A stretch of DNA of 39,680 bases from a virus (Duplodnaviria; Heunggongvirae; Uroviricota; Caudoviricetes), in IMG/VR virus record IMGVR_UViG_650377934_000001, one strand, 5' to 3'. The notes under the pieces were generated by a model that saw only the letters and a list, made by a program, of their open reading frames with translations, made no database searches and had not been told where the DNA came from. Below, piece after piece: positions 13,602 to 36,949 of the stretch (position 1 is its first letter; each line of letters begins with the position of its first letter). The position numbers were made by a program, and so were the translations under genes.

Positions 13602-13610
13602 TGTTTCCCC

Positions 13611-13967: not shown

Positions 13968-13976
13968 AAATGCTCC

Positions 13977-17031: not shown

Positions 17032-17066
17032 AACACATGCTCCTCCTTTTCCTTTAAATCAGGTTA

Positions 17067-17088
17067 AAAGGCGGTCTGAACCGCCTTT
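17067..17088 (-). terminator. Stem-loop immediately downstream of the major head gene (attenuator/terminator-like)
   Basis: AAAGGCGG-TTCAGA-CCGCCTTT on the - strand, 9 nt after the T stop codon; weak U-tract. Confidence 0.45.
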
Positions 17089-17097
17089 TAATGACGG

Positions 17098-19097: not shown

Positions 19098-19293
19098 GTC
19101 CTGCTGCTCATCATGGTTTGTGAGCAGTCAGTTTGCGGGAGGTGCGGGAAAATCTGGGGTTATGCTATTTGAGTACTGGAGAAAGAAAGTGAAAGGAAGA
19201 TAAAACGGGATTCATACACCGTTAAATACCGGTTTAAAAATCCCGTGGCGCGTTTTAAAAAATCTGTGCGGCTGATTTTATGCCTGATTCTGT
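19098..19293 (-). promoter_or_regulatory. G-I intergenic region: late promoter for the head operon and expected location of the central strong gyrase site
   Basis: 196-bp non-coding gap at the exact centre of the prophage, about 17.9-18.1 kb from the left end. Confidence 0.55.
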
Positions 19294-19764
19294 TTATTGC
19301 CTCAGAGCGGCGCTGACGCGTTTTCTGATGGCATCAAAAATTTCCTGTTCCCCGGTCTTATCCAGCCCCATATAAGGACGCGCAGGAACGCCTGCCGGGC
19401 GGGGTGCCATATCGGGTGTACCGCCCCACTGATGAATGGCAGCATAAATTTTTGGCGAACCAATCAGGGCATAATCCTGTCCATAATCGGTGGTAATACT
19501 GCGTGCCAGATCGCCATGCAGGGTAAGGATACTGCCCGGAACAAAACCATGATCCTGACGCCATGCCAGCCACGAATCGCTCCACGCTTCCCAGCCTTTC
19601 CCTGTATCCGGGTCTGCCTGCCGTTCAAATGCCTGTTCCGTGGATGACAGCAGCGCCGCAGCCATCACTCGGGGAATGGCGCGGTCACGTGTGACGGTTC
19701 CCAGTTCATCCAGCGCAAGCTGAATACGTCGCACATCCACGGCAACGTTCATATCAAGACTCAC
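19294..19764 (-). CDS. G: Virion morphogenesis protein G
   Basis: 156-aa ORF between F and I. Confidence 0.75.
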   Translation of the reverse strand: MSLDMNVAVDVRRIQLALDELGTVTRDRAIPRVMAAALLSSTEQAFERQADPDTGKGWEAWSDSWLAWRQDHGFVPGSILTLHGDLARSITTDYGQDYALIGSPKIYAAIHQWGGTPDMAPRPAGVPARPYMGLDKTGEQEIFDAIRKRVSAALRQ

Positions 19765-21116
19765 TTATTCACCTCCACATGCCCCTCCAGTACGTCAATC
19801 ATCCCGTCAGCAATCGCGGCTTCAAGCGACTGTGCAGATACGCGGCTGATACTGACCAGCACATCCGCCCGGTCATTCTGCCTGCCGACTGTCTGTGATG
19901 TTCTGACCACAATCCGGGCCGTGCCGTCACGGGTTGCCACAACATACAGCAACTGGTGGTTCTCCCTGTCCCACAATACCGCCTGTGGTTTTGCCATCAG
20001 CGACGGCAGACGCTGTAAATCCTCCGGTTTCAGGGCGGCATCAGCAGTGGTCGCCAGACTTTTCCCGTTCATTACAAGCAGACGGGCTGGCATATTCCCG
20101 GTGCGCTGATATACGGCTTCAGCCACGGATCCCGTCATAAACCCCAGCGCCCGGATTTCATGACCGGTCTGACGTGATCCTGCCAGGCGTTTAAGCCAGA
20201 GGGAAAAAGCAAGCTGACGCTCCCGGCTGTTATTCAGCGTCTGAACAACCTGCTCACGCAGCTGCGCGTCACGAACTTCCACCAGTTTTCGAATCAGTGC
20301 CTGATCCGTACCAAATGCCGCCGAACCGGGGTTATATGACCAGCCCACATCTGGCGTCATTTTTACCCGACCGTTGTCAAACGTGGTTGACGATGTGCGG
20401 AAAATCTCTCCGGTGCTTTCATCCGTACCGGCATCCACTTCGCGGGTATTCATGAATGACGCACCATAACTGACCTGTAGCCCCAGTTCTTTCATGCGGG
20501 CCGCAGACAGCGCCCGGACGCGACAGCGGCAGTTCCAGCCATTGGGCGGGTAATGCGTCTGCCAGAAAATGTCGTCATACTGGAAAACCATATTGTGCAG
20601 CCGCGCATGTTCCGGGCGTGTTCTGCCATCCATAACGGCAACGTACTGCCAGTACGGGTACAAATCGGCGGTATTCATCATCTGCGCATAACGTCCTGCC
20701 CCATACGCCGTACGGGTATTGACGTTATAAATGGTTGCCAGACGACGCGGACTGCCCAGTTCGATTTCCTTCGCGTTTCCCTCTGCATCCACGATGATTT
20801 GTTTTCCCCACCATCCGAGTTTTTGCAGCCGGGGGGCCAGTGTGCGGGTAAATTCCTCACGGGTGATGCCTTCACTGACAGCCCGCTCCACTTCCTCACG
20901 GATTGTGGTCAGGACATCCATCCGGGTGGCTTTGGCAACGGTAAAGGCGCGGGCGTGCGCGTCTGCCAGTTGTTCGTACCAGTTCCAGGTGATGTTGTAG
21001 CCTTTGGCGCGGAAATACGCGACAGCCTCCTTTGGCGGGAGGCGCGCGGCATACGCCAGATCAATGGTCTGCTGCGGCATCCAGACGCCCCCATATATCG
21101 GCAACAAAAATGGCAC
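19761..21116 (-). CDS. F: Head morphogenesis protein F (Mu F-like minor capsid protein)
   Basis: About 430-451 aa depending on start (alternative start at the MPQQT Met); follows portal gene. Confidence 0.75.
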   Translation of the reverse strand: MPFLLPIYGGVWMPQQTIDLAYAARLPPKEAVAYFRAKGYNITWNWYEQLADAHARAFTVAKATRMDVLTTIREEVERAVSEGITREEFTRTLAPRLQKLGWWGKQIIVDAEGNAKEIELGSPRRLATIYNVNTRTAYGAGRYAQMMNTADLYPYWQYVAVMDGRTRPEHARLHNMVFQYDDIFWQTHYPPNGWNCRCRVRALSAARMKELGLQVSYGASFMNTREVDAGTDESTGEIFRTSSTTFDNGRVKMTPDVGWSYNPGSAAFGTDQALIRKLVEVRDAQLREQVVQTLNNSRERQLAFSLWLKRLAGSRQTGHEIRALGFMTGSVAEAVYQRTGNMPARLLVMNGKSLATTADAALKPEDLQRLPSLMAKPQAVLWDRENHQLLYVVATRDGTARIVVRTSQTVGRQNDRADVLVSISRVSAQSLEAAIADGMIDVLEGHVEVNK

Positions 21117-22599
21117 GGGTCAGCATGTCGATAAGTTCTGCATCATCCATCTGCGGATATAATGAAGCGGCTTTGTTCATGGCGGCTTCCGGGCCATCTT
21201 TCAGCACAGAAAAAATGACGGGTTTCAGCAGGGGGTCAACCGAACGCTGCCAGTCTTCCGGTGAGACGCCCATCCGGTCGATATCATCCTCCTGCGGGAT
21301 ATCTTCAGCGGATAATGCGGCCTCTTTCTGCGAACCGTTATCCGGGACAACCGGTTGTATAGTAAACACGGCTTCATCACCGACCGGCTGTGGAATATGA
21401 AGTTTTTCCTGTATCCAGGAGACCGGAATACGCATTCCCGCCGCCAGTTTCGGAATGGCGTCAGACAGTGCCGTAATATCACCCGCTTCACTGGTATCAA
21501 ATACAATGCCCGGCAGGCGGTTAATATCAATGGTGCTGTCACTGTTCAGTGCCAGCAGGGGATAAATCAGGTCACGGTTAATACTGCGGGCAAGCTGGCC
21601 CACATCCGCGTTACGGATTTCCCGGCGAACCTCATCATGCACTTCACCCAGCGACCGCGCACCTTTATCGCCAGCCTCTGTGGTCAGGGTGCCGCCCAGA
21701 ATGGCTTTTGAAATCGCTTTTTCTGCCCAGCCAATCATCGCCATAAAAGGGTCTGACTGACCATCTGCGGCGCTCTGAAAATCCAGCGTCATCCCCATCG
21801 GAATAATGCCACCGGCACGTCGCCCGATATCCATCACGGCCTGCATCAGCGTGGCTTTCTCGCGGTTCGTTGAGCCGGTCGGATATTTACCGACGCGCAT
21901 GGGGAGTCCGTAAATTTCCAGAAACTCTGCAAAATCACGCACGGAATAGTTTTTAAAAATAAAAGGCCAGATAAGCGTGCGCACAAGGCCATTGGTGCCG
22001 ACATACCCGGTGCGGGATTTGGCCCGGTGCATAAACCAGCCGAACGGTTGCAGCTCCAGCCCGTGATAAGACGCATCACGCAGGCGTAATTCGTTCAGAT
22101 TGTCGGGGTTCGCGCAGAACAGCGCCGGATCGCGATGATGCAGCGCCACCGGCACGCGCATTTTCCCCAGCCAGCCCCATTCAATCTCCTGCATGGAATA
22201 GCCCTTGAGAATGGCATCACCGGCATCAAACAGGGCATCTTCAAACCACGCCGCATCATGCAGATATTCATTCAGCATGTCGGCGTCTTTTTTCTCCTGT
22301 GCGCTGGCATCACGTGCCGGAGCGATGCGCCATTCCAGCGCCTGAATGGCAAGGCGGCGTTTGCTCAGTTCGGAAAAAAGGTGGGTGTCCTTTTCTTCCA
22401 TATCAAAGGCCAGGTCAGCCTGTGCTGTCAGATCACCGCGTTCGGCATCACGCAGCATCTGCGCGGCCCGGTTCGGCGTCACACCACTGGAAGGATGCTC
22501 CTGCGTGCGCTTCATGACCATTGCCAGCTCATCGCTGCGGCTCTGCATTTCATCGTCAAAATCAAACGGCTGCCCGGAAATATCCAGAATACGGCCCAT
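21061..22599 (-). CDS. H: Portal protein
   Basis: 512-aa ORF directly downstream of the large terminase gene with ATGA overlap. Confidence 0.85.
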   Translation of the reverse strand: MGRILDISGQPFDFDDEMQSRSDELAMVMKRTQEHPSSGVTPNRAAQMLRDAERGDLTAQADLAFDMEEKDTHLFSELSKRRLAIQALEWRIAPARDASAQEKKDADMLNEYLHDAAWFEDALFDAGDAILKGYSMQEIEWGWLGKMRVPVALHHRDPALFCANPDNLNELRLRDASYHGLELQPFGWFMHRAKSRTGYVGTNGLVRTLIWPFIFKNYSVRDFAEFLEIYGLPMRVGKYPTGSTNREKATLMQAVMDIGRRAGGIIPMGMTLDFQSAADGQSDPFMAMIGWAEKAISKAILGGTLTTEAGDKGARSLGEVHDEVRREIRNADVGQLARSINRDLIYPLLALNSDSTIDINRLPGIVFDTSEAGDITALSDAIPKLAAGMRIPVSWIQEKLHIPQPVGDEAVFTIQPVVPDNGSQKEAALSAEDIPQEDDIDRMGVSPEDWQRSVDPLLKPVIFSVLKDGPEAAMNKAASLYPQMDDAELIDMLTRAIFVADIWGRLDAAADH

Positions 22600-24254
22600 T
22601 ACCAGCCCCCTCGTTCAAACTGGTGATAATCATCAAAATCATCGTTATCAACATCATCACCACGGTGGCGTGGTGGCAGCGCCTGTATGCTGTCCTCGTC
22701 GATAACAAAACCATTCATATAAGACGCCCTGACAGCCATACAGAGCGCCACGGCAAAGTCGCCATGTCGTCGGCCTTTACCGCCTTCATCTTTTGTGCGC
22801 CCCTTGTCAATCTGCGGGATCCCCTTATCCACCTTGATATGAAGCAGGTCATCAAGTGTGGTCTGATGCCTGGCAATCGTGATGTTCTGCGCTTCAAACT
22901 CGCCTTTCAGTTTTGGCATCCACTCCTGATACCAGGCGGGGGTCAGACTGATGCAGTCGATCATCTCCGGGCCATAAATCAGACGGGCGGCCTCTGCCAG
23001 ATAACCGCCGTTACCGGTGGCATCAAATGCAGCGCCGGTAAAACGGGGCAAACGGGACAGAATGAATAAAAGGATTTGTCGCTGCTGGTCATAGGTCACA
23101 TTACGCAGCTCCACGCGGAAACATTCGCGTTTGCGTAAGTCAGGCGTGATGGCAAGCGGCACAAACACCGTCAGGTCGCCACGGCGTGCAAAGTCTTCGC
23201 CCAGTACGTGTTTATTGAGCGGCGACAGCGCATCGAGCAACGGGAGCAGCTCCTGTTCACACCAGTCCTGAACGATGCCGTGGCGCATTTGTGGTGTCAG
23301 CGATTCAAAATCGTCCGGGGCTTCAAAACGCAGAACCGGGATATCCCGCGCTGGCGTCATGGCGGCTTCAATCAGCACGCGTGACAGATAAGCGCCCCCG
23401 GATTTTTTAGGAATGCAGCCGTATTCCTCGTCGGCACTCTCTTTATTCGGCGCATTCCGGTACAGGCCATCACGCCAGGCTTTTTCCGCTTCCGGCGACC
23501 ACGGCTGATTCGTGACGTAACAGATACGTCGGTATAACCCGTCAGCGATGGCATCATCCAGCGTGATGCGGTGAACGCTGTAATCCTTGCGCCCCTCGCG
23601 CGCATCCTGAATGTACTGATTAAACAAATTATCGACGCCGTTATGTGTCGATATGATGCGCACGCTGGCACCCCACATGTTTAGTGCAAAGGCCGCTTTC
23701 AGGAGTTCGTCCAGGGCTTCATGGAATGCCGCCTCATCAATCACCACGTCCCCCTGCAAACCACGCAGGTTAGACGGGCGGCTTGACAGCGCCTGTATCT
23801 TAAATCCGCTGTTCGGAAAGCGGATCATATAAGTGAGGATTTCTTCTTTTTTATCGCTGTCCCAGAAGGTCTGCTCCCAGACATCAGCCTTTGCCAGCTG
23901 GTTAAAGGCGCGGGCAAACAGGGCACAGGCGGCGATGTATTCCAGCGCCATTTCCTGACGGGAACCCACATAAAAGACATTGCGACCACCGCGACGCTTC
24001 GGCTTCGCTGCCGTCATGACATTGCGGCCTGCTTCGGCCCACGTCAGGCCAGTACGACGGGATTTTTCAGCAATACAAATCTGGCTTTCATCCTCAAACC
24101 AGCGGCGCTGATAGCCCAGAAAAACCGGTTCATTGCGGGGCTGTGCTTCCCCGATATCGGTCACGATATCCACGCCGAGCAGTCCGGCTTCCTCACGCAG
24201 GTTGATTTTGCGGGGCGCATGAAGGGCTTTAAGGTTGTTTTCTCTGGTGTTCAT
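22599..24254 (-). CDS. Terminase large subunit
   Basis: 552 aa from the MNTREN Met (longest ORF 615 aa overlaps the upstream gene); between the small-terminase-like gene and the portal gene. Confidence 0.85.
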   Translation of the reverse strand: MNTRENNLKALHAPRKINLREEAGLLGVDIVTDIGEAQPRNEPVFLGYQRRWFEDESQICIAEKSRRTGLTWAEAGRNVMTAAKPKRRGGRNVFYVGSRQEMALEYIAACALFARAFNQLAKADVWEQTFWDSDKKEEILTYMIRFPNSGFKIQALSSRPSNLRGLQGDVVIDEAAFHEALDELLKAAFALNMWGASVRIISTHNGVDNLFNQYIQDAREGRKDYSVHRITLDDAIADGLYRRICYVTNQPWSPEAEKAWRDGLYRNAPNKESADEEYGCIPKKSGGAYLSRVLIEAAMTPARDIPVLRFEAPDDFESLTPQMRHGIVQDWCEQELLPLLDALSPLNKHVLGEDFARRGDLTVFVPLAITPDLRKRECFRVELRNVTYDQQRQILLFILSRLPRFTGAAFDATGNGGYLAEAARLIYGPEMIDCISLTPAWYQEWMPKLKGEFEAQNITIARHQTTLDDLLHIKVDKGIPQIDKGRTKDEGGKGRRHGDFAVALCMAVRASYMNGFVIDEDSIQALPPRHRGDDVDNDDFDDYHQFERGGW

Positions 24255-24261
24255 AACCCTC

Positions 24262-24852
24262 TCATGCCTTACCCAGCAGTACATCACGGATACGCTGCTC
24301 CAGCTCTTCGCTGATGCCATCCTGCCCGCGCAGTTCTTCACTGACGGCGTTTGCCGCTTCTTCTGCGAATGCCTGGCGGATTTCTTTCTCGCGCCGGTGG
24401 CTGGACATTGCCGTGGATTCCAGACGCTGTGCCGCCAGCATGGCATTTTTCAGCAGGTCAATATCCACGTCAGATTCCGGGTTTTCGATTTGCCGCATCA
24501 TGGCCTTAAAAAGCTGGCTGCGGGCCATTTCCAGAATCAGCTTTGTGGTTTCTCCCATTGGCTTGTCGCCAAGTTCTGCGGTCAGTGCTGACGTCATTTC
24601 ACGCATCTGTCGCAGGTTATGGCCTACCTGCTCGACGTTCGTCGCGTAACGATTCAGACCGGAACGGGAGAGTTTCATCTCATCCGGCAGGCCTGCGTCT
24701 TCAATCAGTGCGTTAATTTCTTCCAGAATGCGGGCCTGTGGGATCGCTTTATCACGCAGCATTTCATGCAGCGTTTTACGTACGTTTTCCGGCAGTAAAT
24801 CCACTTTTGAAGCCCGGCCCCGTGTTTTCCTGTCCATCACGCCTCCTGTCAT
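24262..24852 (-). CDS. Terminase small subunit-like protein (Mu gp27-like)
   Basis: 196-aa ORF immediately upstream of the large terminase gene. Confidence 0.6.
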   Translation of the reverse strand: MTGGVMDRKTRGRASKVDLLPENVRKTLHEMLRDKAIPQARILEEINALIEDAGLPDEMKLSRSGLNRYATNVEQVGHNLRQMREMTSALTAELGDKPMGETTKLILEMARSQLFKAMMRQIENPESDVDIDLLKNAMLAAQRLESTAMSSHRREKEIRQAFAEEAANAVSEELRGQDGISEELEQRIRDVLLGKA

Positions 24853-25139
24853 GCACGGGGACGAGGACGCTTGACACCGGCAACGCGGGCACGACCTTCT
24901 GCCACATCCTGACCTCGGGAGGTCAGCGTTACGACATAAAAGCCGCGCAGGTTTTCCACGGTGACCAGTTGCTGCTCTGCCAGCCAGTCAATCTGGCCGC
25001 GAACCACATCGCGGGAAACGTTGTGTCCGTATGCATCCAGACAGTCCTGAAGGATGGATTCGTTTGCTTCGTTATTGCAGTCCATCAGGGAACGCAGGAT
25101 GACCAGACGACGGTCTTCGGTCAGAATATCGTTAATCAT
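24849..25139 (-). CDS. Small conserved Mu late protein (gp26-like)
   Basis: 96-aa ORF, 4-nt overlaps with both neighbours. Confidence 0.55.
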   Translation of the reverse strand: MINDILTEDRRLVILRSLMDCNNEANESILQDCLDAYGHNVSRDVVRGQIDWLAEQQLVTVENLRGFYVVTLTSRGQDVAEGRARVAGVKRPRPRA

Positions 25140-25453
25140 GAATTACTCCGGTTTACTGCGTTTTCAAGCAGCAGCTCCAGTTGATGGGAAAATGACTGCA
25201 CCCGCTGGGACAGCACCCGGATATCGCCGGACAGCTCTGCAATTCGCAGGCGCATTTCGTGTACATCTTCTGTGCCAGGGATGCTGGCGTAGCGGGTTTC
25301 CATTTCGGTCATCCGGTTTTCAAGACGCTCCACACGCTCGGTGCTGGCAAAACTACGACGCATCGCCCAGACGGCCCCACCGGCCACAACAGGCAACAGG
25401 TAAGGCCATAACGCTAAAACTGAAATCAAATCCATTATTCTGCTCCACGGCAC
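25136..25453 (-). CDS. Small membrane protein with N-terminal TM helix and coiled-coil tail; candidate lysis regulator (releasin-like)
   Basis: 105-aa ORF; hydrophobic segment ISVLALWPYLLPVVAGGAVWAM followed by a charged helical region. Confidence 0.55.
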   Translation of the reverse strand: MPWSRIMDLISVLALWPYLLPVVAGGAVWAMRRSFASTERVERLENRMTEMETRYASIPGTEDVHEMRLRIAELSGDIRVLSQRVQSFSHQLELLLENAVNRSNS

Positions 25454-25629
25454 CAGTGGCAGTAGTTCGCCATCGGCTGCTGTCTCAGCACATCAGGCCG
25501 CAGCTCACGACCGCAACCGGCACACAATACAGGCGGGTCATACGCCGCCGGGCGGGGAATATCACGGGTATCCCCCTGCCAGAGTTCAGCGAGCAGCAGC
25601 GCCACCGCCCGGTTCTGGTCTTCGTTCAT
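25435..25629 (-). CDS. C4 zinc-finger protein (TraR/DksA-type spacing)
   Basis: 64-aa ORF with CAGC-x17-CHWC (Cys36, 39, 57, 60). Confidence 0.6.
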   Translation of the reverse strand: MNEDQNRAVALLLAELWQGDTRDIPRPAAYDPPVLCAGCGRELRPDVLRQQPMANYCHWCRGAE

Positions 25630-25927
25630 AAATTTCTTTCCTTCGGATCTCCTGTTCCCGGACTGATGCCTTGTCGCGGTTGCACTGCCCGAGCGCCATC
25701 AACAGGTCAGCATTCCAGAGAAGGGATGCTCCCCACGTCAGGGGCTGTGGCATGGGCGGAACGGGCGTTGCTTCCGTCAGTTCTGTATCAATTTCGGGCA
25801 GGATCACCACCGATGGCACGGGTGCGTTTTTCGAGTTCCCGCAACCTGTCAGCAGCAACGGCAGGCACAGGACGAGTGCTGCAATTGTCACCAGTAATGG
25901 CGGTTGTAATTTTTTCTTTTGCATCAT
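25586..25927 (-). CDS. Outer-membrane lipoprotein spanin component (o-spanin), overlapping the i-spanin gene
   Basis: Signal peptide plus lipobox LLTGC (MQKKKLQPPLLVTIAALVLCLPLLLTGC), Pro-rich mature part; start taken at the Met at 25927. Confidence 0.7.
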   Translation of the reverse strand: MMQKKKLQPPLLVTIAALVLCLPLLLTGCGNSKNAPVPSVVILPEIDTELTEATPVPPMPQPLTWGASLLWNADLLMALGQCNRDKASVREQEIRRKEIYERRPEPGGGAAAR

Positions 25928-26174
25928 GATGTTCTGTCTCATCTGCCAGCCGTGCGGCACGATTTGCGGCACGGATAGCGGAAAATACCTGCATCGTCTG
26001 TTCCTGACCGTGTAACAACCATTCAGCAGTGTGGCGGGCCTGTTGCTCCGTCTGTAATTCACGGCGCAGCGTCTGGTTATCGTGGCGGGTGCTGTCCAGC
26101 CTGTGCCACAACCCCCCGGACAGAACGGCGGTAAACACGGCTGCCAGTAGTAAACTTTTACTGGCGAAGGTCAT
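25788..26174 (-). CDS. Inner-membrane spanin component (i-spanin)
   Basis: 128-aa ORF with N-terminal TM helix (SLLLAAVFTAVLSGGLW) and helical periplasmic domain; directly after lys. Confidence 0.7.
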   Translation of the reverse strand: MTFASKSLLLAAVFTAVLSGGLWHRLDSTRHDNQTLRRELQTEQQARHTAEWLLHGQEQTMQVFSAIRAANRAARLADETEHHDAKEKITTAITGDNCSTRPVPAVAADRLRELEKRTRAIGGDPARN

Positions 26175-26676
26175 CCGCCCCCCTGATATTCCAGATTGCC
26201 ATTTCCACTTCGCGACGGTTCATCAGTCCTTTCCATTTATGGCCTGCGGCAAACACCCAGCGGGCCATCTGGTCACGCGCTCCGGCGTAATCACCGGCAT
26301 TGAGTTTTTTCAGCAGCGTTGATTTACTGAATGCGGTAACACCGGTGTTGAAAATAAACGTTGCCAGCGCCGTTTTCTGATATGGCGTCAGCGGCACCCT
26401 GACAAGACGATCGATTGCCGCATAAACCGGTTTTAAATCACTGTCGAGGAGAGCCATACACTCCGCATGGCTGTAACGGCGCATTTCGATATCCGGCCCG
26501 GTATGTCCCACACAGACCGTAAGCACACCGGCAATATCGCGGTAAGGCATATAAGCGATATTTTCCAGGTGGATCAGAGACTGACGGGTCATTTCCTGAT
26601 AACCACCCACTCCGCCACCGGCAATCGTTACAGCCAGCAGTGCGGCTTTCAGTTTTTTTGGTATCCCCGCCATCAT
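26158..26676 (-). CDS. lys: Endolysin with N-terminal signal-anchor-release (SAR) domain
   Basis: 172-aa ORF; Gly/Ala-rich weakly hydrophobic N-terminus KLKAALLAVTIAGGGVGG, lysozyme-like body; first gene after C. Confidence 0.85.
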   Translation of the reverse strand: MMAGIPKKLKAALLAVTIAGGGVGGYQEMTRQSLIHLENIAYMPYRDIAGVLTVCVGHTGPDIEMRRYSHAECMALLDSDLKPVYAAIDRLVRVPLTPYQKTALATFIFNTGVTAFSKSTLLKKLNAGDYAGARDQMARWVFAAGHKWKGLMNRREVEMAIWNIRGADDLRQ

Positions 26677-26767
26677 GCTTCCCTGAAAAAATTCTCTGAT
26701 GGCAGTCTAAAAAATCAGGTGGCAGGTGCGGGATTATGGTGACAGGAAATAACCGGCAGGATGCCGG
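26677..26767 (-). promoter_or_regulatory. C-dependent late promoter region upstream of lys
   Basis: 91-bp gap between C and lys. Confidence 0.5.
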
Positions 26768-27190
26768 TTATTTTGGGGTTTCAGGTGAGAACAGATCAGG
26801 CTGATGACGTCGTGTATGCAGCTTTCTCTGGCGGGCAATAATCTGGTAGATCTGCGGCTGGGACAGGCGGTACTGGCGACGCAGTTCTTCCATGTTACGA
26901 CCATTAAACTGGCAGTAAAGCAAATCGTCGCGTAACGCGGTCAGGATCGTATCGCCGCAGGGGATGTAAAACTGCCGTCCACCCAGAAAACAGGACAGGG
27001 CAACGGCCTGTTTACGGGCAAGTTCACGGGGATTGCTGACGTTCTGGCGTTTCAGTTCGTTTTCCAGAACATCAATCAGATCAACCACCGAACGGGGCCA
27101 GCGTGATTCCAGTTCCGGGGCCGGGATGTTATCAATATGTCCGATTAACTGGCGAATTGCCGGATCGTGTTCAAATAAATCATGCTGCAT
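26768..27190 (-). CDS. C: Late transcription activator C (Mor/C family)
   Basis: 140-aa ORF; shares the GG.Q.YIP.G...FNGRN...EL block with Mor. Confidence 0.9.
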   Translation of the reverse strand: MQHDLFEHDPAIRQLIGHIDNIPAPELESRWPRSVVDLIDVLENELKRQNVSNPRELARKQAVALSCFLGGRQFYIPCGDTILTALRDDLLYCQFNGRNMEELRRQYRLSQPQIYQIIARQRKLHTRRHQPDLFSPETPK

Positions 27191-27202
27191 ATTTTCCCCC
27201 GG

Positions 27203-27322
27203 TTAACAGACAGAAAGATACACCACGGCACTGATGGTTATCAGAACCACAAGGGCAATCACTTTTATCGCATTAATCAGCGTGGACGGCCCGAAACATT
27301 CATCACTGAATTTTCTGTACAT
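27203..27322 (-). CDS. Possible 39-aa hydrophobic micro-protein
   Basis: ATG at 27322, stop TAA 27203-27205, GGGG Shine-Dalgarno-like motif upstream; predicted peptide MYRKFSDECFGPSTLINAIKVIALVVLITISAVVYLSVC; below the 60-aa cutoff of the ORF track. Confidence 0.35.
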   Translation of the reverse strand: MYRKFSDECFGPSTLINAIKVIALVVLITISAVVYLSVC

Positions 27323-27331
27323 GGTGCCCCT

Positions 27332-27694
27332 TTACCCGAACAGACGAGCGCGAAAACGAAATGAGAGCCAGAACGTCAGCAATCCGGCCAGCGCCCAGAT
27401 GACATGCTCAGGACCCGTTTTCAGTTGAGACGTTGCCATCACGGCTAATCCCAGCCCGGACAGACTCCCCAGCCAGGTCAGAGGCCAGACGAACCGGGCA
27501 AAATGTTCAGGCACCCGGCAGCTCATTATCAGCGCATCCAGACAATCAGCGGCAACACATAAAGCAACACTGAAAACCGAGGCACAGCAAAACATCAGCG
27601 CGCGCCAGCCACAAAACAGACTTATCCACAATAACAGCGCCAGTAACACCACCGATAAAAAATCAGGCCACTGACGAGCAGAACGCTCAGACAT
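27332..27694 (-). CDS. Polytopic small membrane protein (middle operon)
   Basis: About 120 aa from the MSERSARQW Met (AGGGAG Shine-Dalgarno upstream); several hydrophobic helices. Confidence 0.6.
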   Translation of the reverse strand: MSERSARQWPDFLSVVLLALLLWISLFCGWRALMFCCASVFSVALCVAADCLDALIMSCRVPEHFARFVWPLTWLGSLSGLGLAVMATSQLKTGPEHVIWALAGLLTFWLSFRFRARLFG

Positions 27695-27905
27695 AATGTT
27701 TCTCCCTGTAAAGCAGGCAATGATGAAGAATTTCCGGCATATCAACTGACTGCCAGCCTTTCATGTAATAACTGCCGTGGGTGCCATCATGACCGGTATA
27801 GTCGCGGGGCGCAGGACGTGGCCCACCGGCGACACGGTGCAAAACCTCCTGACGCAGCCGCTCACGTCTGCCAAGATGAAAGGATGCATTCCAGCCTTTA
27901 CCCAT
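27687..27905 (-). CDS. Small ORF (72 aa), first gene after the early terminator
   Basis: ORF MGKGWNASFHLGRRERLRQEV... overlapping the start of the membrane-protein gene by 8 nt. Confidence 0.45.
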   Translation of the reverse strand: MGKGWNASFHLGRRERLRQEVLHRVAGGPRPAPRDYTGHDGTHGSYYMKGWQSVDMPEILHHCLLYREKHYV

Positions 27906-27952
27906 GATGATTTTCCCCGGTACGGTTATTCATCACAGGATATTGAGGACGT

Positions 27953-27977
27953 AAAAAAAGCCGGATTAACCGGCTTT
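27953..27977 (-). terminator. Intrinsic terminator downstream of mor (end of early operon)
   Basis: On the - strand AAAGCCGG-TTAAT-CCGGCTTT followed by TTTT, 6 nt after the mor stop; about 9.2 kb from the phage left end. Confidence 0.75.
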
Positions 27978-27982
27978 ACTGT

Positions 27983-28372
27983 TTACAGAAGTGAGGGCTG
28001 GTACTGGCGGTATTTCAGCCGTCGCATCCGGCGAATGGCTTTGTACACCGTATTGAAAGTGACACCATAACGGGTGGTCAGTTCGCTGACGTTGCGACCG
28101 TTAAAATCATTCCAGATACGCAAATCCCGAATCAGCGAGTCCAGAGCCTGACCGCGTGGAATGTAGACCTGACCGCCGCCCAGATGCTTACAGATAGCCA
28201 CAACAATCTCCAGTGAATGGGCAGGATCAACACCCAGCCGGGACAATTCCCCGCGCAGTAAATCGTTCAGCTCCGCCAGCAGTGCCGGAAAGCGTGACGT
28301 ATCCTCGGCGGGATTGTCAAGATGTGCCAGGATGGTGTCATCCTGCAAATCACCAAATAAATCTTCCGTCAT
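27983..28372 (-). CDS. mor: Middle operon regulator Mor (Mor/C family activator)
   Basis: 129-aa ORF, paralogue of C, last gene of the early operon. Confidence 0.9.
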   Translation of the reverse strand: MTEDLFGDLQDDTILAHLDNPAEDTSRFPALLAELNDLLRGELSRLGVDPAHSLEIVVAICKHLGGGQVYIPRGQALDSLIRDLRIWNDFNGRNVSELTTRYGVTFNTVYKAIRRMRRLKYRQYQPSLL

Positions 28373-28920
28373 TGTGCCATCCTCCGTGTCTTTCTGGCAT
28401 GGGCATAAGCCGCCGTCATGGCATCATAGCCGCGCAGTTCACGACCGGACGGACTGACCGGCAATGGAAGCCCGTGACGGGAAAAGGCTTCACGAATACA
28501 GCGGATGTGCCACTGCTTGAGTGTTTCGAGGACTGTCAGCAGCGTGTCGCCATGACACCACGCCAGTGTGGAAACGCCCTGTCCGCCGTTGCGTTTCGCG
28601 GTCAGGCGCTGAACATATTTATCCAGCGCCACATCACCGCCATCGGTAATAAAACCGTCTTCTGCCATCTGCTGCCAGATTTTATACACCTTCTCACGGG
28701 GCGTGACATGCCCCTTAAAGCGGCGACGGGGGTATTTATTCTGCTTCTTAAAGCCGCGTTCTTTCATGGCACCGAGCACCTGTTCCAGTTGCGTGACCGT
28801 CAGCTCGCGGCAACTGATTTTGCCCGTTTTCTGCATCAGAAAAGCGCGGTAAGTGTCGTCGTCGAGTTGTAGCTCCCGACGGGCGACATGGATTAATTTA
28901 ATCAGGGATGTGCGACTCAT
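28369..28920 (-). CDS. gemA: GemA-like protein (Mu gp16 family)
   Basis: 183 aa from the Met at 28920 preceded by GGAGG with 7-nt spacer (longest ORF starts at 28956); 4-nt overlap with mor. Confidence 0.8.
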   Translation of the reverse strand: MSRTSLIKLIHVARRELQLDDDTYRAFLMQKTGKISCRELTVTQLEQVLGAMKERGFKKQNKYPRRRFKGHVTPREKVYKIWQQMAEDGFITDGGDVALDKYVQRLTAKRNGGQGVSTLAWCHGDTLLTVLETLKQWHIRCIREAFSRHGLPLPVSPSGRELRGYDAMTAAYAHARKTRRMAQ

Positions 28921-28990
28921 GATCGTACCTCCGGAAAGGGGGCGGTGCTGCAACACCGCCTGAATTTACACATCAATCAGAGAGGATTTT

Positions 28991-29257
28991 ATGGAAAATA
29001 ATGTACAACCTTATGATGTTGCAGGTTATGCGATTGCATCAGCACTGGTGCGCCTTCTGGTGAAGAAGGCGATCATCACCGCAGAAGAGGGCAAAGCCAT
29101 TTTCAGCTCTTCAGCAGAGATTTTAAAAGATGCGCCTGCAATGAGAACAAGCCGCCGCGAAAAACTGCAACTGTCAAAGATCATGGAAGACATTATCAGT
29201 TCGTTAGACCCAGATGCTGACGGATCTCAAAAGCCTCAAACACATGAGCGTCAGTAA
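28991..29257 (+). CDS. Candidate antisense ORF (88 aa) within the early operon
   Basis: ATG at 28991 preceded by GAGAGGA with 5-nt spacer; product looks protein-like (charged, amphipathic); opposite strand to all neighbouring genes. Confidence 0.3.
   Translation: MENNVQPYDVAGYAIASALVRLLVKKAIITAEEGKAIFSSSAEILKDAPAMRTSRREKLQLSKIMEDIISSLDPDADGSQKPQTHERQ
29026..29193 (-). CDS. Possible small early ORF (55 aa) filling the gap upstream of gemA
   Basis: ATG 2 nt after the upstream stop; low-complexity product; below the ORF-track cutoff; conflicts with the antisense ORF 28991..29257. Confidence 0.3.
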   Translation of the reverse strand: MSSMIFDSCSFSRRLVLIAGASFKISAEELKMALPSSAVMIAFFTRRRTSADAIA

Positions 29258-29513
29258 CAATATCCTGGTCTGATAGCCCCAGCCTGCGGCGGATGTACTC
29301 CTCGCGGGCTGTTTCATTTTGCAGTGCCACTACTGTTTCCAGACGATTCATTTCGCGGTTGATAATGTCACGGACTTCTCTGGCGGTGAGATTATGCTTA
29401 ATACCATATTCAACGATAGCGCGAACACGTTCCAGCATCCCTTTTTCAGCCATGACGTTATCAATATTAAGGGGAGTAAATTTAGTTTCATTATTCATAT
29501 TATTCACCTTCAC
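29196..29513 (-). CDS. Early accessory protein, function unknown
   Basis: 105-aa ORF in the semi-essential early region. Confidence 0.55.
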   Translation of the reverse strand: MKVNNMNNETKFTPLNIDNVMAEKGMLERVRAIVEYGIKHNLTAREVRDIINREMNRLETVVALQNETAREEYIRRRLGLSDQDIVTDAHVFEAFEIRQHLGLTN

Positions 29514-29682
29514 AATTCATGCACGCTGTGTCATCGCCCATATCGCAGTGGTTGCATTTCAGCCCGCCACAATGAGGGCACTCTTTCAGATATTCAGGGG
29601 ATTCATTACCGCAGGTCGGGCATTCCTGTTTCACCGTGGTGAATTTCCCCAGCCACGAATACGATGTTTTATTGTTTTCCAT
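29500..29682 (-). CDS. Cys-rich zinc-ribbon mini-protein
   Basis: 60-aa ORF with CPTC...CPHC...CNHC...CMNC. Confidence 0.55.
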   Translation of the reverse strand: MENNKTSYSWLGKFTTVKQECPTCGNESPEYLKECPHCGGLKCNHCDMGDDTACMNCEGE

Positions 29683-30199
29683 TGTTTACCTCCGCCTGTT
29701 TTTGCGCCCGGATAAATTCGTCAGAAAGGATTTCAGTCATGCGGCCTTGCGCGGGTGTCATCCCCGTCATGACGTAAATCACATCACCAACACGGAACCA
29801 CTGGAGCGGCCCGAATATTGTTGCGCTGAAATCCAGTCCCAGTGCGGGTAAAAGAGCGTCTGTGCGGGCGTAAGTGACCGGAATATTCTCCTGCCATATT
29901 TTCGCCAGCTCTCTTGCCTGCTCCCTGAGATGAGCAGGTATCCGCGAAGTTCTGGGCCTGCAACTGTTACCTGATGCGGGCCGTTGTACGGTCCACAGCT
30001 CCCGCGAGAAAGGGCGCTCATTCCCCGGAAAGTTCACACCATGAAAATAACGCCCACCAATACTTGTGCTGAATACTGACCGGCAACCACAACCCAGAAC
30101 CTTATCAAGATGGCGGGCTTCTTCGCGTAGTTTCAGACAGTCCGCCATAAACTGGTCCCACGCCAGCAGTGCTGCGGGATTTGACGTTTTAAAAAACAT
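29669..30199 (-). CDS. Early accessory protein, function unknown
   Basis: 176 aa from the MFFKTSNP Met, which forms an ATGA overlap with the upstream stop. Confidence 0.55.
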   Translation of the reverse strand: MFFKTSNPAALLAWDQFMADCLKLREEARHLDKVLGCGCRSVFSTSIGGRYFHGVNFPGNERPFSRELWTVQRPASGNSCRPRTSRIPAHLREQARELAKIWQENIPVTYARTDALLPALGLDFSATIFGPLQWFRVGDVIYVMTGMTPAQGRMTEILSDEFIRAQKQAEVNNGKQ

Positions 30200-30729
30200 C
30201 ACGCCACCTCCTGCACCGCTGCGGGAGCCGGAGAACAATCAAGAATGAGATAACGCAGTACATGGTCGGTGATATTCCAGACGCTTGAACTGCAAATAAA
30301 ACGCCCCAGCCGGATATCGATATAAGCCATCACAAAACGGGGCATTCCCTGTTCGCACATTCTGTTATCCACCTCAGCAACAATGTGGACTGACTCACAG
30401 GTCAGCACGCCCGTCGCAAACTCTTTTGCCAGCGCGGGGATGGTATTACCTTCCACCCAGGGTAATGAGCGACGCCAGTTGCACCACACCGCATCATCAA
30501 CAGCAGGCTGCTCAGTTGCGTTTCGTCTTACAGGCGGCGTCGGACGCGGGCGCGGAACGTCATAAAATCCGTTGCATTCGGTGAGCACTCCGGCATCAAC
30601 CGCATCACGCAGGAAATACACCATTGACGAGGGCAGCATATTCATTTTTTCAGCCAGAACTCCGCAGGTCAGGCGTCCGTAAGCCCGTAATAATGTGCTG
30701 ACACCATTCAGAATTTTTGCATCAACCAT
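30199..30729 (-). CDS. Early accessory protein, function unknown
   Basis: 176-aa ORF downstream of gam. Confidence 0.55.
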   Translation of the reverse strand: MVDAKILNGVSTLLRAYGRLTCGVLAEKMNMLPSSMVYFLRDAVDAGVLTECNGFYDVPRPRPTPPVRRNATEQPAVDDAVWCNWRRSLPWVEGNTIPALAKEFATGVLTCESVHIVAEVDNRMCEQGMPRFVMAYIDIRLGRFICSSSVWNITDHVLRYLILDCSPAPAAVQEVA

Positions 30730-30827
30730 GTTTTATTCCTCAGTAATCTGTTTCAGGCGCGAGCAATCTCCTGACGTATCGCGCCATAATTAAAAGAATG
30801 TGAATTAATTAAATATTAATGGTGGTA

Positions 30828-31352
30828 TTAAATACCGGCTTCCTGTTCAAATGGAATAATAGAAAAATCCTCAATGCCTGATTTAACTGTAATTCCGGCA
30901 ACGCCTGCGACCGCTTTCGGTTCCAGTAAAATCGCTTCCTTGTTGATTTCCTGCTTCGTGCGAATAAAGCGTTGCAGGCCAAGACGCTCCAGCGTTTCCA
31001 TCACTGCATCCATACCACGAATACTTACTGATGGTGGACGGACCCGCCACGATACATCACCGGTGACAAGATTCGCCGTCTTCACTTTGCCGCCGTTCGT
31101 CAGTTCGTCGCGGTTCGCTTCACACCATCCCTGAACGCCTTTTGAAAGGGTTTCAATATCGGTTTTAATCGGTGCAATCCGGGCCGCAAATTTCTCCGTA
31201 ATTTCCGCGATGGCATCATTCATTTCCGTTTCCAGACGTGATGCTTCGCGCTGTAAATCCCCGATGCGTTTAATATCGGTAATCACCGCATCGCGGTTTT
31301 GTGGCACATAAGCCGCTGCGGCACTCTTGATACGTTTTGCTGGTTTAGCCAT
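30828..31352 (-). CDS. gam: Gam, DNA-end-binding host-nuclease inhibitor (Ku-like)
   Basis: 174-aa ORF; sequence and size match my recollection of Mu Gam. Confidence 0.85.
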   Translation of the reverse strand: MAKPAKRIKSAAAAYVPQNRDAVITDIKRIGDLQREASRLETEMNDAIAEITEKFAARIAPIKTDIETLSKGVQGWCEANRDELTNGGKVKTANLVTGDVSWRVRPPSVSIRGMDAVMETLERLGLQRFIRTKQEINKEAILLEPKAVAGVAGITVKSGIEDFSIIPFEQEAGI

Positions 31353-31371
31353 AAATTAAAGCTCCTGTTAA

Positions 31372-31671
31372 TTAATATCCGCTGTATACAATGCTGGATA
31401 CAGCTCGATTGCTTAATTCCATCTTTCGGGCAATAACATGAATATCCAGTCCTTCTTTATAAAGTTCACGACATAAATATTTGTCGTGTTCACTGATTCG
31501 GTATACACACAATGATATTCCGTGCCTTCTGGCATGTGCCCGGAGGGCGGTTGTGGCGACTTTCAGTTTTTCCGCCATTTCTTCAACGGTCATTTTCCCG
31601 ACGTTGGCTTCGATAAATTCCCGGTCTTCGCGTGACCAGCGCTTACGATTACACTTCATGTCAGTCACCAT
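31372..31671 (-). CDS. Early accessory protein, function unknown
   Basis: 99-aa ORF. Confidence 0.5.
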   Translation of the reverse strand: MVTDMKCNRKRWSREDREFIEANVGKMTVEEMAEKLKVATTALRAHARRHGISLCVYRISEHDKYLCRELYKEGLDIHVIARKMELSNRAVSSIVYSGY

Positions 31672-32115
31672 TCAGTACAGCAGAGGCTCGCGCAGTGATG
31701 CCGGAATATGCCGCAGCGATAACTGAACCGCTTTCAGGGCAAGCGAGGAATAACAGCAGCGCGCCCAGCCTTTTGCCATTAACCGGTAATCGCGCCAGAT
31801 ACGCTGCCACATTTCACGGGCTTCAGGGTCTGATGCGCAGATGTATTCCCGGTCCATGACGTACTCCCATAAATCCACGTTAAACGCATCGCCAGACGCA
31901 ATGGCGCGGGATATGCTTTCGCCGCAATAACGCGCACAGATGCTGTAATGGTCGAAAGTAATCAGGTAAGTTTTTTCACCATAGCCATCAACTTCACGCG
32001 CACAAATAAACTCGCGTAATTCACCACCGTTGTTATTGCGTTCCTGAATTCGGATTAATGCCTGAATTTCATTTCGGATTTTGACATTCATTGTCAGCGT
32101 TCCTTTCAGTGACAT
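31672..32115 (-). CDS. Early accessory protein, function unknown (alternative start at 32091)
   Basis: 147-aa ORF, Cys-containing. Confidence 0.5.
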   Translation of the reverse strand: MSLKGTLTMNVKIRNEIQALIRIQERNNNGGELREFICAREVDGYGEKTYLITFDHYSICARYCGESISRAIASGDAFNVDLWEYVMDREYICASDPEAREMWQRIWRDYRLMAKGWARCCYSSLALKAVQLSLRHIPASLREPLLY

Positions 32116-32369
32116 GTTTTTTCAACAGCCATTTCAGTGACACGACCACTGGTGATGACACCATCGTTTTTCAAAATCTCAATAGCTTCATGGGCTGACT
32201 CATTAATTATTTTCTGGCTTTTATTAAGCACCAGTAACGCCACCATGCCAGCAAGTGTACCCTCATCACCGTCCAGTTCCGCACTACCGTCCACCGCAAT
32301 GCTGGTGCGCAAATTCCGTCCTTTAATTCCAGATACTGTATTTTTAATTTCAATAATTACTTTTGCCAT
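32106..32369 (-). CDS. Early accessory protein, function unknown
   Basis: 87-aa ORF. Confidence 0.5.
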   Translation of the reverse strand: MAKVIIEIKNTVSGIKGRNLRTSIAVDGSAELDGDEGTLAGMVALLVLNKSQKIINESAHEAIEILKNDGVITSGRVTEMAVEKTCH

Positions 32370-32380
32370 TTTGTTTCACC

Positions 32381-32611
32381 TTATTGATTCTGAATAACCG
32401 CGCTGGCTTTTACCTTCGCGCCTTTTACCTGTTTAAAGAAAACTGCGCTGCACCACGGACAACATGTCAGGGAATCCCGAATTTCCTTTTCGGGTGAGCA
32501 TTGCGTCATAATCTGTTCACCACATCCGGGGCATTTATATGTCGTCAGCGGCACCCCGTGGCACTGACAGTGTTTAACCCATTCAATATATTTTTCAGCT
32601 TTAATACACAT
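32381..32611 (-). CDS. Cys-rich small protein (putative zinc-binding)
   Basis: 76 aa from the Met at 32611 preceded by GGAG; CQCHG...CPGCG...CCPWC. Confidence 0.5.
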   Translation of the reverse strand: MCIKAEKYIEWVKHCQCHGVPLTTYKCPGCGEQIMTQCSPEKEIRDSLTCCPWCSAVFFKQVKGAKVKASAVIQNQ

Positions 32612-32613
32612 CG

Positions 32614-32838
32614 TTATCTCCAGATAATCTGGCAACCATTAAGACGGGCCGTCCATACAGAACGGGCCACCCCGGACTTATGCTCCATAATTCTGACCGC
32701 GTTTTTTACCAGTTCCACCGGTGGGTAAGTGATTTCAAGAATCGGACGCGCCACGCCGAGATATGATTCATTTACATGACTCCCGCGCGCCTGTAACCAG
32801 TTCTGCGCATCCGTTGCCATTTTTATATTTCGGGCCAT
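32614..32838 (-). CDS. kil: Kil-like host-killing/cell-division inhibitor
   Basis: 74 aa from second Met; first ORF downstream of B, assigned by position and size. Confidence 0.6.
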
Positions 32839-32856
32839 CATAATTTCTTCTCCTTC

Positions 32857-33795: not shown

Positions 33796-33833
33796 CTGAA
33801 TAACCTCGTAATTAAATTTTGTTTAAACGTTAA

Positions 33834-35825: not shown

Positions 35826-35826
35826 G

Positions 35827-36054
35827 TTATTCACCTGCTTGATATCGGCTAGGCCAGATTACTTCCGGTTTAGTTTCTAAGGCGTTAGCAATAATCTGCT
35901 CACCCTTTGGCCAGTGTCGTTCTAGCGCATTAGCTAATGTAGTTGGCGCATAACCAAACTGCCGGGAAAGAGCTGATAAAGAGAGCTTTCTTTTCTTAAG
36001 TCCCGCAATCACATCCGCACGATGCCAATCACGGGCCTTTTCGTTGGAACACAT
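35827..36054 (-). CDS. ner: Ner, negative regulator of early transcription (DNA-binding)
   Basis: 75-aa ORF directly upstream of A, divergent from c. Confidence 0.9.
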
Positions 36055-36814: not shown

Positions 36815-36949
36815 CAACCATGAACCAGCTAAAACATACTTCACCTCACATAATCACACATGTAACATACCTAAACGGCATAAGCTGATTTGTGATATGA
36901 GTCATTTGGTGACAGCTTGGTTGTTATCGGTTTTGAACGTTTTTTGAAG

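Follow-up and report, generated by a model that had tools for sequence, protein, structure and literature searches.

The lysis genes in the DNA analysed here are almost certainly those of bacteriophage Mu, opening the late operon driven by Plys and relying on gp25, the releasin, instead of a holin. The whole stretch of 39,680 nt (the window) represents a phage Mu prophage inside an E. coli chromosome, and its positions 24500-28000 are 100% identical to positions 9153-12653 of Mu AF083977.1. Nothing was found that speaks against this identification of the cassette. Holin-less, releasin-dependent lysis of Mu is already known from experiments (Chamblee et al. 2022, mBio 13:e00813-22; PMC9239132), and the current GenBank annotation of AF083977 reads SAR endolysin, i-spanin, o-spanin and releasin, with Mu_25 labelled "releasin". 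As a discovery the result therefore has little weight, since the sequence is that of the reference phage and the pathway was published in 2022 and has entered the GenBank annotation.

The lysis cassette and its promoter

A sequence-only reading of this region had described five genes in a lysis cassette. All five were found where it had placed them, on the minus strand, and its sole errors concern two start codons. The case confirms that lysis genes of a non-canonical type can be recognised from the letters alone. Their identity, order and annotation are the same as in AF083977 and in the published description of Mu lysis (PMC9239132), and the DNA of the lysis region shows no differences. Window coordinates equal 37153 minus the Mu coordinate (AF083977), and the features are as follows.

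26684..26750, minus strand: Plys, the C-activated late promoter driving the lysis/head operon (AF083977 annotation, Mu 10403..10469)
26158..26673, minus strand: gene 22 (lys), SAR endolysin, GH24 muramidase, 171 aa (Pfam, PHROG, catalytic triad, N-terminal segment)
25788..26174, minus strand: gene 23, i-spanin (PHROG match, TMD, AF083977 annotation)
25586..25927, minus strand: gene 23.1 (Mu_55), o-spanin lipoprotein, 113 aa (Pfam LysC, lipobox)
25435..25629, minus strand: gene 24, 64 aa, CxxC-x17-CxxC (sequence; PHROG 3260, unknown function)
25136..25435, minus strand: gene 25, releasin, 99 aa, DUF2730 (Pfam PF10805, one TMD, AF083977 annotation)

A generic sigma-70 promoter/terminator scan missed Plys, as would be expected of an activator-dependent (C-activated) promoter, and is uninformative for it; the scan returned one promoter-like site, with 2.2 expected by chance. 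The gene order C-22-23-23.1-25-26-D is conserved in 31 of 33 related viral contigs. Elsewhere in the window, this copy departs from AF083977 in being integrated as a prophage, in having an inverted G segment and in four further small differences; its repressor c has Arg47 where AF083977 reads Gln47.

The SAR endolysin gp22

The product of gene 22 matches Pfam Phage_lysozyme PF00959 (E=1e-37, 129.7 bits with a cut-off of 22.3) and a PHROG endolysin family (E=4e-52), and its translation contains the catalytic triad E37-x8-D46-x5-T52. Residues 10-25, AALLAVTIAGGGVGGY, include 10 Ala, Gly or Thr out of 16 (4 Ala, 5 Gly, 1 Thr) and are preceded by K6, K7 and K9. The best 19-residue Kyte-Doolittle mean of this N-terminal segment is 1.09, where the true TMDs of gp25, gp19 and gp20 reach 1.8-2.8, so the segment is too weakly hydrophobic for an ordinary TMD. 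A lysozyme domain with an E-D-T triad behind a weak, Gly/Ala-rich TMD that follows basic residues bears out the SAR-type endolysin of the sequence-only reading. The Gly/Ala-rich signal anchor stands, and the start proposed at 26676 has to be replaced by the annotated one at the second Met, 26673, from which the published Lys residues take their numbers 6 and 7.

The solved structures nearest to gp22 are RrrD 4zpu (E=2e-37) and 3hde/3hdf (E=3e-37), the latter being chains that we take to be phage 21 R21. The likeness to the S21 68/R21 system of phage 21 extends from this close sequence relationship to the GH24 lysozyme family, the E-D-T triad and the N-terminal SAR domain. Experimentally, gp22 is a SAR endolysin that can be released either by the phage 21 pinholin S21 68 or by chloroform (PMC9239132). 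The two systems differ in that Mu has no pinholin, that release in Mu requires a cytoplasm-facing DUF2730 protein and is not set off by depolarisation, and that gp22 carries a dibasic K6 K7 lock together with an unusually Gly-rich SAR segment.

The spanins gp23 and gp23.1

The i-spanin gene is present as described: gp23 matches PHROG 214, "Rz-like spanin" (E=1e-34), and has one N-terminal TMD at residues 7-23 (SLLLAAVFTAVLSGGLW, Kyte-Doolittle 1.86), while its score against Pfam DUF2570 is 18.3, below the threshold of 26.6. The o-spanin gp23.1 matches Pfam LysC (E=4e-14) and carries the lipobox L-T-G-C with Cys29. Its gene overlaps the 3' part of gene 23 by 140 nt (25788..25927), is read in a different frame and extends 202 nt beyond the gene 23 stop, in agreement with the out-of-frame, overhanging arrangement that had been read from the letters alone. 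The same layout is seen in P2 LysB/LysC, where the o-spanin also begins within the i-spanin gene in another frame and outruns its stop. This overlapped arrangement is the P2 type, and lambda Rz1 is of the "embedded" type. P2 carries Y, a canonical holin, and K, a soluble endolysin, and Mu has neither.

With lambda S105/R/Rz/Rz1, Mu shares an attack in three steps, on the inner membrane, the cell wall and the outer membrane, all encoded in one late-operon cluster, and lambda RzRz1 rescues a Mu 23.1 amber mutant that otherwise produces spherical cells (PMC9239132). In contrast to lambda, Mu has no holin or antiholin, its endolysin leaves the cytoplasm through Sec and not through holes made by a holin, and the timing of lysis is not set by holin triggering (PMC9239132).

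Gene 25 and the genetics of release

Gene 25 is the fourth gene after lys, a position matched in 33 related viral contigs. Its product, the prototype of the DUF2730 family (PMC9239132), matches Pfam PF10805 with 50.4 bits (cut-off 24.9, E=2.5e-13). A single hydrophobic segment at residues 3-25 is followed by R26 R27 and a cytoplasmic domain of ~73 aa, and by the positive-inside rule gp25 would be a single-pass protein with N-out/C-in topology; about four of its residues face the periplasm (PMC9239132). Relatives keep basic residues behind the TMD, in 72% at position 27 and in 67% at position 32. The single-pass membrane protein of the sequence-only reading is thus present, at a length of 99 aa and not 105 aa: the annotated and experimentally used ATG at 25435 has GGAG 8 nt upstream and overlaps the gene 24 stop (TAATG), and the GTG at 25453 that opens the longest frame has no Shine-Dalgarno sequence. 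Some DUF2730 members are paired with non-SAR endolysins (PMC9239132), suggesting that the family may not all share one function.

The published genetics assign gp25 a central role. Lysogens carrying 22::cam or 25::cam do not lyse, chloroform rescues 25::cam, and lysis of the 25::cam lysogen is delayed until ~3 h, compared with ~40 min for the wild type, so that the protein is not dispensable (PMC9239132). From plasmids, gp22 and gp25 together cause lysis at ~50 min and either one alone causes none (PMC9239132). The dependence on gp25 requires both K6 and K7 of gp22, as K6A or K7A makes lysis gp25-independent and K-to-R exchanges leave it gp25-dependent; gp25 also aids unrelated SAR endolysins (PMC9239132). 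Addition of dinitrophenol (DNP) was not lethal with gp19, gp20, gp25 or a construct of all holin candidates, DNP delayed Mu lysis and did not trigger it, and expression of gp25 had no effect on growth (PMC9239132). The sequence-only reading had a small membrane protein, dedicated to this task, release the SAR endolysin of Mu in place of a holin or pinholin, and Chamblee et al. 2022 came to the same conclusion (PMC9239132); their tests of gp19, gp20, gp25 and the combined construct revealed no canonical holin elsewhere.

How gp25 may release gp22

In the pathway proposed here, C protein would activate Plys, and gp22 would be exported via the host Sec system and stay inactive while its SAR domain, weakly hydrophobic and rich in Gly/Ala, holds it to the inner membrane, with the basic K6 and K7 on the cytoplasmic side locking this domain in the bilayer. 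With no Mu holin or pinholin, gp25 would let the SAR domain exit the membrane. The freed gp22 would then refold into an active muramidase and degrade the cell wall, after which the two-component spanin gp23/gp23.1 would disrupt the outer membrane. Published experiments (PMC9239132) show what gp22, gp23/23.1 and gp25 do, the dependence set by K6/K7 and the lack of depolarisation-triggered lethality. For the release step itself, Chamblee et al. keep protease, host-partner and channel models (PMC9239132), and the later papers searched simply cite the releasin, adding nothing mechanistic. The mechanism that we prefer is that gp25 acts non-covalently on gp22. The help that gp25 gives to unrelated SAR endolysins (PMC9239132), its predicted all-helical build and the conservation pattern given below favour this mechanism; the weakness of the structure model, the partial conservation of H59 and D57, the pairing of some DUF2730 members with non-SAR endolysins and the nearly neutral cytoplasmic domain count against it.

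We examined the conservation and predicted structure of gp25 with these models in mind. AlphaFold2, given 15 close relatives, produced a model of low confidence (pLDDT 62.6, pTM 0.24), of which only the helical secondary structure was used; it predicts an all-helical protein in which the TMD would continue into a helix to residue 49, followed by a loop at 50-54 and a helix at 55-98. In a set of 123 diverse DUF2730 relatives, conservation falls on P53 (98%), G70 (87%), E46 (acidic in 86%), R41 (basic in 85%) and D71 (acidic in 78%). The cytoplasmic domain is nearly neutral, with 12 acidic and 11 basic residues, and the simple picture of an anionic domain neutralising the lysines is therefore not obviously right. 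Several SAR endolysins paired with DUF2730 proteins read IPKSLKAS, IPRSLKAS, IPNSLKAS or IPASLKAS at the K6/K7 site. As Mu needs both lysines, these sequences suggest that the releasin may have a role beyond overcoming a dibasic lock.

Among the alternatives to non-covalent action, gp25 could be an unusual one-TMD holin or pinholin forming a transient or substrate-gated channel that passes the charged N-terminus of gp22, in which case Mu would not be holin-less. We regard this as quite unlikely. It would fit a small late-operon membrane protein that is required for endolysin activation (PMC9239132), it resembles the TAT-like "channel assembled around the substrate" that the authors keep (PMC9239132), and the DUF2730 relatives conserve the basic pair that follows the TMD, with a basic residue at position 27 (R27) in 72% of them. 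However, gp25 is harmless to growth and is not triggered by depolarisation, DNP delaying Mu lysis, and just those four or so residues are periplasmic (PMC9239132); moreover, most of the conserved positions are found in the helices on the cytoplasmic side and not in the TMD.

Very unlikely, in our estimate, is a membrane-tethered protease that clips the K6/K7 tail off gp22 and so removes the charges locking the SAR domain, which is model (i) of the authors (PMC9239132). The dependence on two basic residues with K-to-R tolerated is reminiscent of trypsin-like specificity (PMC9239132), and the cytoplasmic domain of gp25 offers 9 Ser, 2 His and 12 acidic residues. A word-index homolog search returned relatives of at least 48% identity, in which Ser31, His84 and Asp57 are invariant, so that this set cannot test the protease idea and an exhaustive profile search was needed. 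In the 123 DUF2730 relatives no serine is conserved (maximum 24%), which weighs against a protease, and H84 is kept in 26%. H59 is found in 60% of them and D57 is acidic in 58%, leaving room for a catalytic role of gp25. In the low-confidence model the cytoplasmic part of ~73 aa would form two long helices, unlike a protease fold.

Genes 19 and 20

The sequence-only reading had found no multi-TM holin gene beside lys, and hydropathy scanning of all ORFs of 30 aa or longer agrees with it: downstream of Plys no coding-strand ORF has two or more TM segments, and the only one that does is gene 19, a middle-operon gene located upstream of gene C. The scan is a crude method, and holins with one TMD exist. 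The topology check that the reading had suggested gave one hydrophobic segment for gp25 and four for gp19. Single-TM ORFs in alternative frames of the large late genes were rejected as hydropathy noise, each having one weak segment and lying inside an annotated structural gene. The two membrane-protein genes of the middle operon are as follows.

27332..27694, minus strand: gene 19, 120 aa, four hydrophobic segments, middle operon (hydropathy, annotation)
27203..27322, minus strand: gene 20, 39 aa, single TMD, middle operon (annotation; hydropathy 2.77)

That gp19 and gp20 form a canonical holin and antiholin pair displaced to the middle operon is hardly credible: the four hydrophobic segments of gp19, the one strong TMD of gp20 and the distance of less than 1 kb from lys would suit it, and such roles were proposed from topology by Samanta et al. 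(as cited in PMC9239132), but both belong to the middle genes, with gene C, a terminator and Plys lying between them and lys, and neither behaved as a holin in published tests (PMC9239132). Natural plaque-forming relatives, moreover, lack gene 19: a precise deletion removes it in SfMu (window 27322..27690), and the genes of Yersinia vB_YpM_3 and PhiR68_1 are laid out as in SfMu. Nor is gene 19 matched in 25 of the 33 related viral contigs, which keep genes 22-25. Gene 19 is the only holin look-alike, and genes 19 and 20 stand outside the lysis system.

Gene 24 as a possible partner of the releasin

The 64-aa four-cysteine protein described earlier is present as gp24, with the spacing CxxC-x17-CxxC. 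A C4 zinc finger of the TraR/DksA type was considered for it and rejected, as only this spacing fits and neither profiles nor PDB sequences give support: gp24 had no match in Pfam or among PDB sequences at E up to 10, and it scored 15.3 bits (E=0.019) against NCBIfam DksA_like, whose cut-off is 105. One phage record annotates a gp24 counterpart as TraR/DksA.

A four-Cys protein of 65-68 aa lies immediately upstream of the DUF2730 gene in all nine translated relatives (9/9), down to ~63% gp25 identity. The gp24-like gene is absent in the two relatives that diverge most (L037/L038), whose endolysin and DUF2730 ORFs abut. Chamblee et al. 2022 do not mention gp24 (PMC9239132). We consider it unlikely, yet worth stating, that gp24 acts together with the releasin or regulates it, for instance as a timer or "anti-releasin". 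If true, a releasin timer would address what sets the time of lysis in a phage without a holin.

Genes of the lysis cassette

The lysis cassette, which the sequence-only reading had placed at 25136-26676 and described as having no canonical holin, holds all the elements listed for it on the minus strand, namely a SAR endolysin, an i-spanin, an o-spanin, a 64-aa four-cysteine protein and a membrane protein. This observation was confirmed, with two start codons corrected.

Genes of the Mu lysis cassette and the adjoining gene 26 (window coordinates)
26158..26673, minus strand: gene 22, SAR endolysin, 171 aa (Pfam Phage_lysozyme, E=1e-37)
25788..26174, minus strand: gene 23, i-spanin, 128 aa (PHROG 'Rz-like spanin', E=1e-34)
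25586..25927, minus strand: gene 23.1, o-spanin, 113 aa (Pfam LysC, E=4e-14)
25435..25629, minus strand: gene 24, 64 aa (CxxC-x17-CxxC)
ATG at 25435, minus strand: gene 25, releasin, 99 aa (Pfam DUF2730, 50.4 bits against a cut-off of 24.9)
24849..25139: gene 26 (NCBIfam 'VpaChn25_0724 family phage protein', E=5e-38)

The endolysin gp22 bears E37-x8-D46-x5-T52, and the solved structures closest to it are RrrD (4zpu, E=2e-37) and the lysozyme chains 3hde/3hdf, which we take to be R21 of phage 21. Its residues 10-25 (AALLAVTIAGGGVGGY) include 4 Ala, 5 Gly and 1 Thr, and the best 19-residue Kyte-Doolittle mean at its N-terminus is 1.09, versus 1.8-2.8 for true transmembrane domains (TMDs) nearby; such a weak Gly/Ala-rich segment is what marks a signal-anchor-release (SAR) domain. 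The i-spanin gp23 has a single, N-terminal TMD, and gp23.1 carries an L-T-G-C lipobox with Cys29. Gene 23.1 overlaps the 3' end of gene 23 by 140 nt, in another frame, and continues 202 nt beyond its stop, which is the 'overlapped' spanin layout read earlier.

For the endolysin gene, only the start had to be changed, from 26676 to the annotated second Met at 26673, and the published Lys6 and Lys7 numbering thereby falls in place. The membrane protein of gene 25 is present, at 99 aa from the annotated and experimentally used start and not at the 105 aa first proposed, which is the longest ORF, read from a GTG at 25453; no ribosome-binding site was found at this GTG. GGAG precedes the ATG at 25435 by 8 nt, and this ATG overlaps the stop of gene 24 in the sequence TAATG. 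The protein has one TMD at its N-terminus, followed by Arg-Arg. Gene 26 and the stop of gene 25 have 4 nt in common; the gene 26 product, annotated as a winged-helix protein, is 84-100% conserved in all 33 related viral contigs of our set, above every lysis gene.

The window carries an integrated phage Mu

Megablast against phage records matched all 3501 bases of window 24500-28000 to Escherichia phage Mu at 100% identity (AF083977.1 and NC_000929.1, positions 9153-12653, minus strand); other matches were D108 (99.1%) and SfMu with several Yersinia Mu-like phages (about 98%). Aligned over its full length to the Mu record of 36,717 bp, the window holds Mu at 436..37152 in reverse orientation (window coordinate = 37153 minus Mu coordinate), with three substitutions and two single-base indels, so that the lysis finding is located in the reference phage Mu.

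E. coli chromosome lies on both flanks, and a 5-bp direct repeat, GCGGC, brackets the prophage as a target-site duplication (window 431-435 and 37153-37157). The complete Mu is integrated in a chromosomal E. coli gene with a glycosyltransferase annotation; the identical Mu-host junction occurs in four complete E. coli genomes (SL112, B-766, HBUT-L and hubt-sl), and in two DH5alpha assemblies the match covers the flank and, of Mu itself, no more than about 70 bp at the left end. The 3.1-kb G segment (window 2116..5199) is inverted with respect to AF083977, aligning to the plus strand at 100% identity while the remaining Mu aligns to the minus strand; provided that the reference is G(+), the prophage is G(-) and its S'/U' tail-fibre genes are oriented for expression. 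In the repressor c gene (36224..36814, plus strand), the variant site at window 36363 gives Arg at codon 47 versus Gln in AF083977. If R47Q is, as we presume, the temperature-sensitive allele cts62, AF083977 would be cts62 and the prophage repressor wild type.

Published genetics of Mu lysis

The Mu holin question was addressed directly by Chamblee et al. (2022, mBio; PMC9239132), and gp25 is the small dedicated membrane protein that had been proposed to release the Mu endolysin in place of a holin. Normal lysis at about 40 min is lost in 22::cam and 25::cam lysogens; lysis of 25::cam comes only after about 3 h, and chloroform rescues it, so the protein read at 25136-25453 is not dispensable. 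From plasmids, gp22 and gp25 together lyse cells and either alone does not. The need for gp25 is abolished by gp22 K6A or K7A, not by K9A, and is retained after K-to-R changes; three unrelated SAR endolysins are likewise released with the help of gp25, and gp22, itself a SAR endolysin, can be released by the phage 21 pinholin. As for a canonical holin elsewhere, dinitrophenol (DNP) is not lethal with gp19, gp20, gp25 or a construct of all holin candidates, in contrast to lambda S105 and S21 68, and Mu lysis is delayed, not triggered, by DNP. The spanin subunits are gp23 and the newly recognised gp23.1, whose amber mutant forms spherical cells, a defect that lambda RzRz1 corrects. The same authors introduced the name 'releasin' for gp25 and the term holin-less phage for Mu, and updated the AF083977 annotation to match (PMC9239132); the later literature that we found merely cites this work.

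In the order shown there, late transcription from Plys, the C-activated promoter, comes first, gp22 inserts into the membrane via its SAR domain, locked by K6 and K7, and after gp25-dependent release gp22 degrades the cell wall and the spanin then disrupts the outer membrane (PMC9239132). Since both a holin elsewhere and the dispensability of gp25 have been tested in print, the interpretation of holin-less, releasin-dependent lysis stands and is supported.

Gene 19 and the search for a holin

All ORFs of 30 aa or longer, in the six frames of the window, were searched for 19-residue hydrophobic segments. In line with the earlier statement that no multi-TM holin adjoins lys, the only coding-strand ORF of Mu with at least two such segments is gene 19 (27332..27694, minus strand; four hydrophobic stretches), which lies in the middle operon upstream of gene C, with a terminator and the C-dependent Plys between it and lys. 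Downstream of Plys, outside the lysis cassette, the hydropathy scan found single weak segments only, inside large annotated structural genes.

SfMu has a clean gap at window 27322..27690 (gene 19) while genes 20 to 27 are still about 98% identical, and Yersinia phage vB_YpM_3 and Escherichia phage PhiR68_1 share this layout. Gene 19 had no match in 25 of the 33 related contigs and only a 38% match in two; of the 25 without a match, ten carry a gp25 at least 93% identical to that of Mu. The order C-22-23-23.1-25-26-D is preserved in 31 of 33, and no ORF with at least two TM segments was found between C and D in the 11 representative loci inspected. This pattern points the same way as the window scan, suggesting that gene 19 is not the lysis holin. 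Among Mu-like phages, the four-TMD middle gene 19 is a presence/absence polymorphism.

gp24 and the cassettes of relatives

The four-cysteine protein gp24 is not mentioned in PMC9239132 and is not required when lysis is reconstituted with just gp22 and gp25 (PMC9239132). In all nine relatives that we translated, a 65-68-aa protein with four conserved cysteines (CxxC-x16/17-CxxC) is encoded directly upstream of the DUF2730 gene, persisting down to about 63% gp25 identity; these nine relatives fall in the contig range L022-L035, and some of their proteins are too divergent for tblastn detection. It is absent in contig L037 and, judged from identical gene spacing, in L038. A role for gp24 as regulatory partner of the releasin appears unlikely. 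Membership of the TraR/DksA family was also considered; the cysteine spacing fits, but no profile or PDB match was obtained.

The divergent Mu-like cassette of L037 and L038 (3560..4300; gp25 41% identical) encodes a 142-aa endolysin, 40% identical to gp22, with the DUF2730 gene directly after it; no i-spanin, o-spanin or gp24 homolog was detected between the two, and upstream there is a divergent homolog of gene 19, with 38% identity. The K6 K7 pair, which makes Mu gp22 dependent on gp25 (PMC9239132), is not conserved in close relatives (contigs L022, L023, L025, L029 and L031), where several SAR endolysins paired with DUF2730 have IPKSLKAS, IPRSLKAS, IPNSLKAS or IPASLKAS at this position. 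The L023 endolysin (2626..3270) has an eight-fold SPK repeat (PKSPKSPKSPKSPKSPKSPKSPKSLKAS) in its cytoplasmic tail.

How gp25 may act

Three models of gp25 action were left open, a protease, an unknown host partner and a transient channel or chaperone, and those DUF2730 proteins that accompany non-SAR endolysins may have another role (PMC9239132). An exhaustive profile search returned 288 gp25 relatives at E<=1e-3, and conservation was taken from an alignment of 123 of them, each of 95-121 aa. P53 (98%), G70 (87%) and H59 (60%) are conserved, E46 and D71 are acidic in 86% and 78%, and R41 and R27 are basic in 85% and 72%. In the same alignment there is no conserved serine, the highest value being 24%, and H84 is retained in just 26%. 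The AlphaFold2 model, built with 15 close relatives, is all-helical and of low confidence (pLDDT 62.6). In it, a helix continuous with the TMD reaches residue 49, residues 50-54 form a loop, and another helix covers 55-98.

A protease acting on gp22 would have to work from this two-helix domain of 73 residues, in which the alignment shows no conserved nucleophile, and as a serine protease gp25 is a poor candidate. The same features lead us to favour a non-covalent role, in which gp25, at the membrane face, would mask or escort the charged N-terminus of gp22. The cytoplasmic domain of gp25 is nearly neutral (12 acidic versus 11 basic residues), so a purely electrostatic account is not self-evident.

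In conclusion, the lysis system of Mu is a known one that had been characterised by experiment, and the sequence analysed here is that of the reference phage itself.
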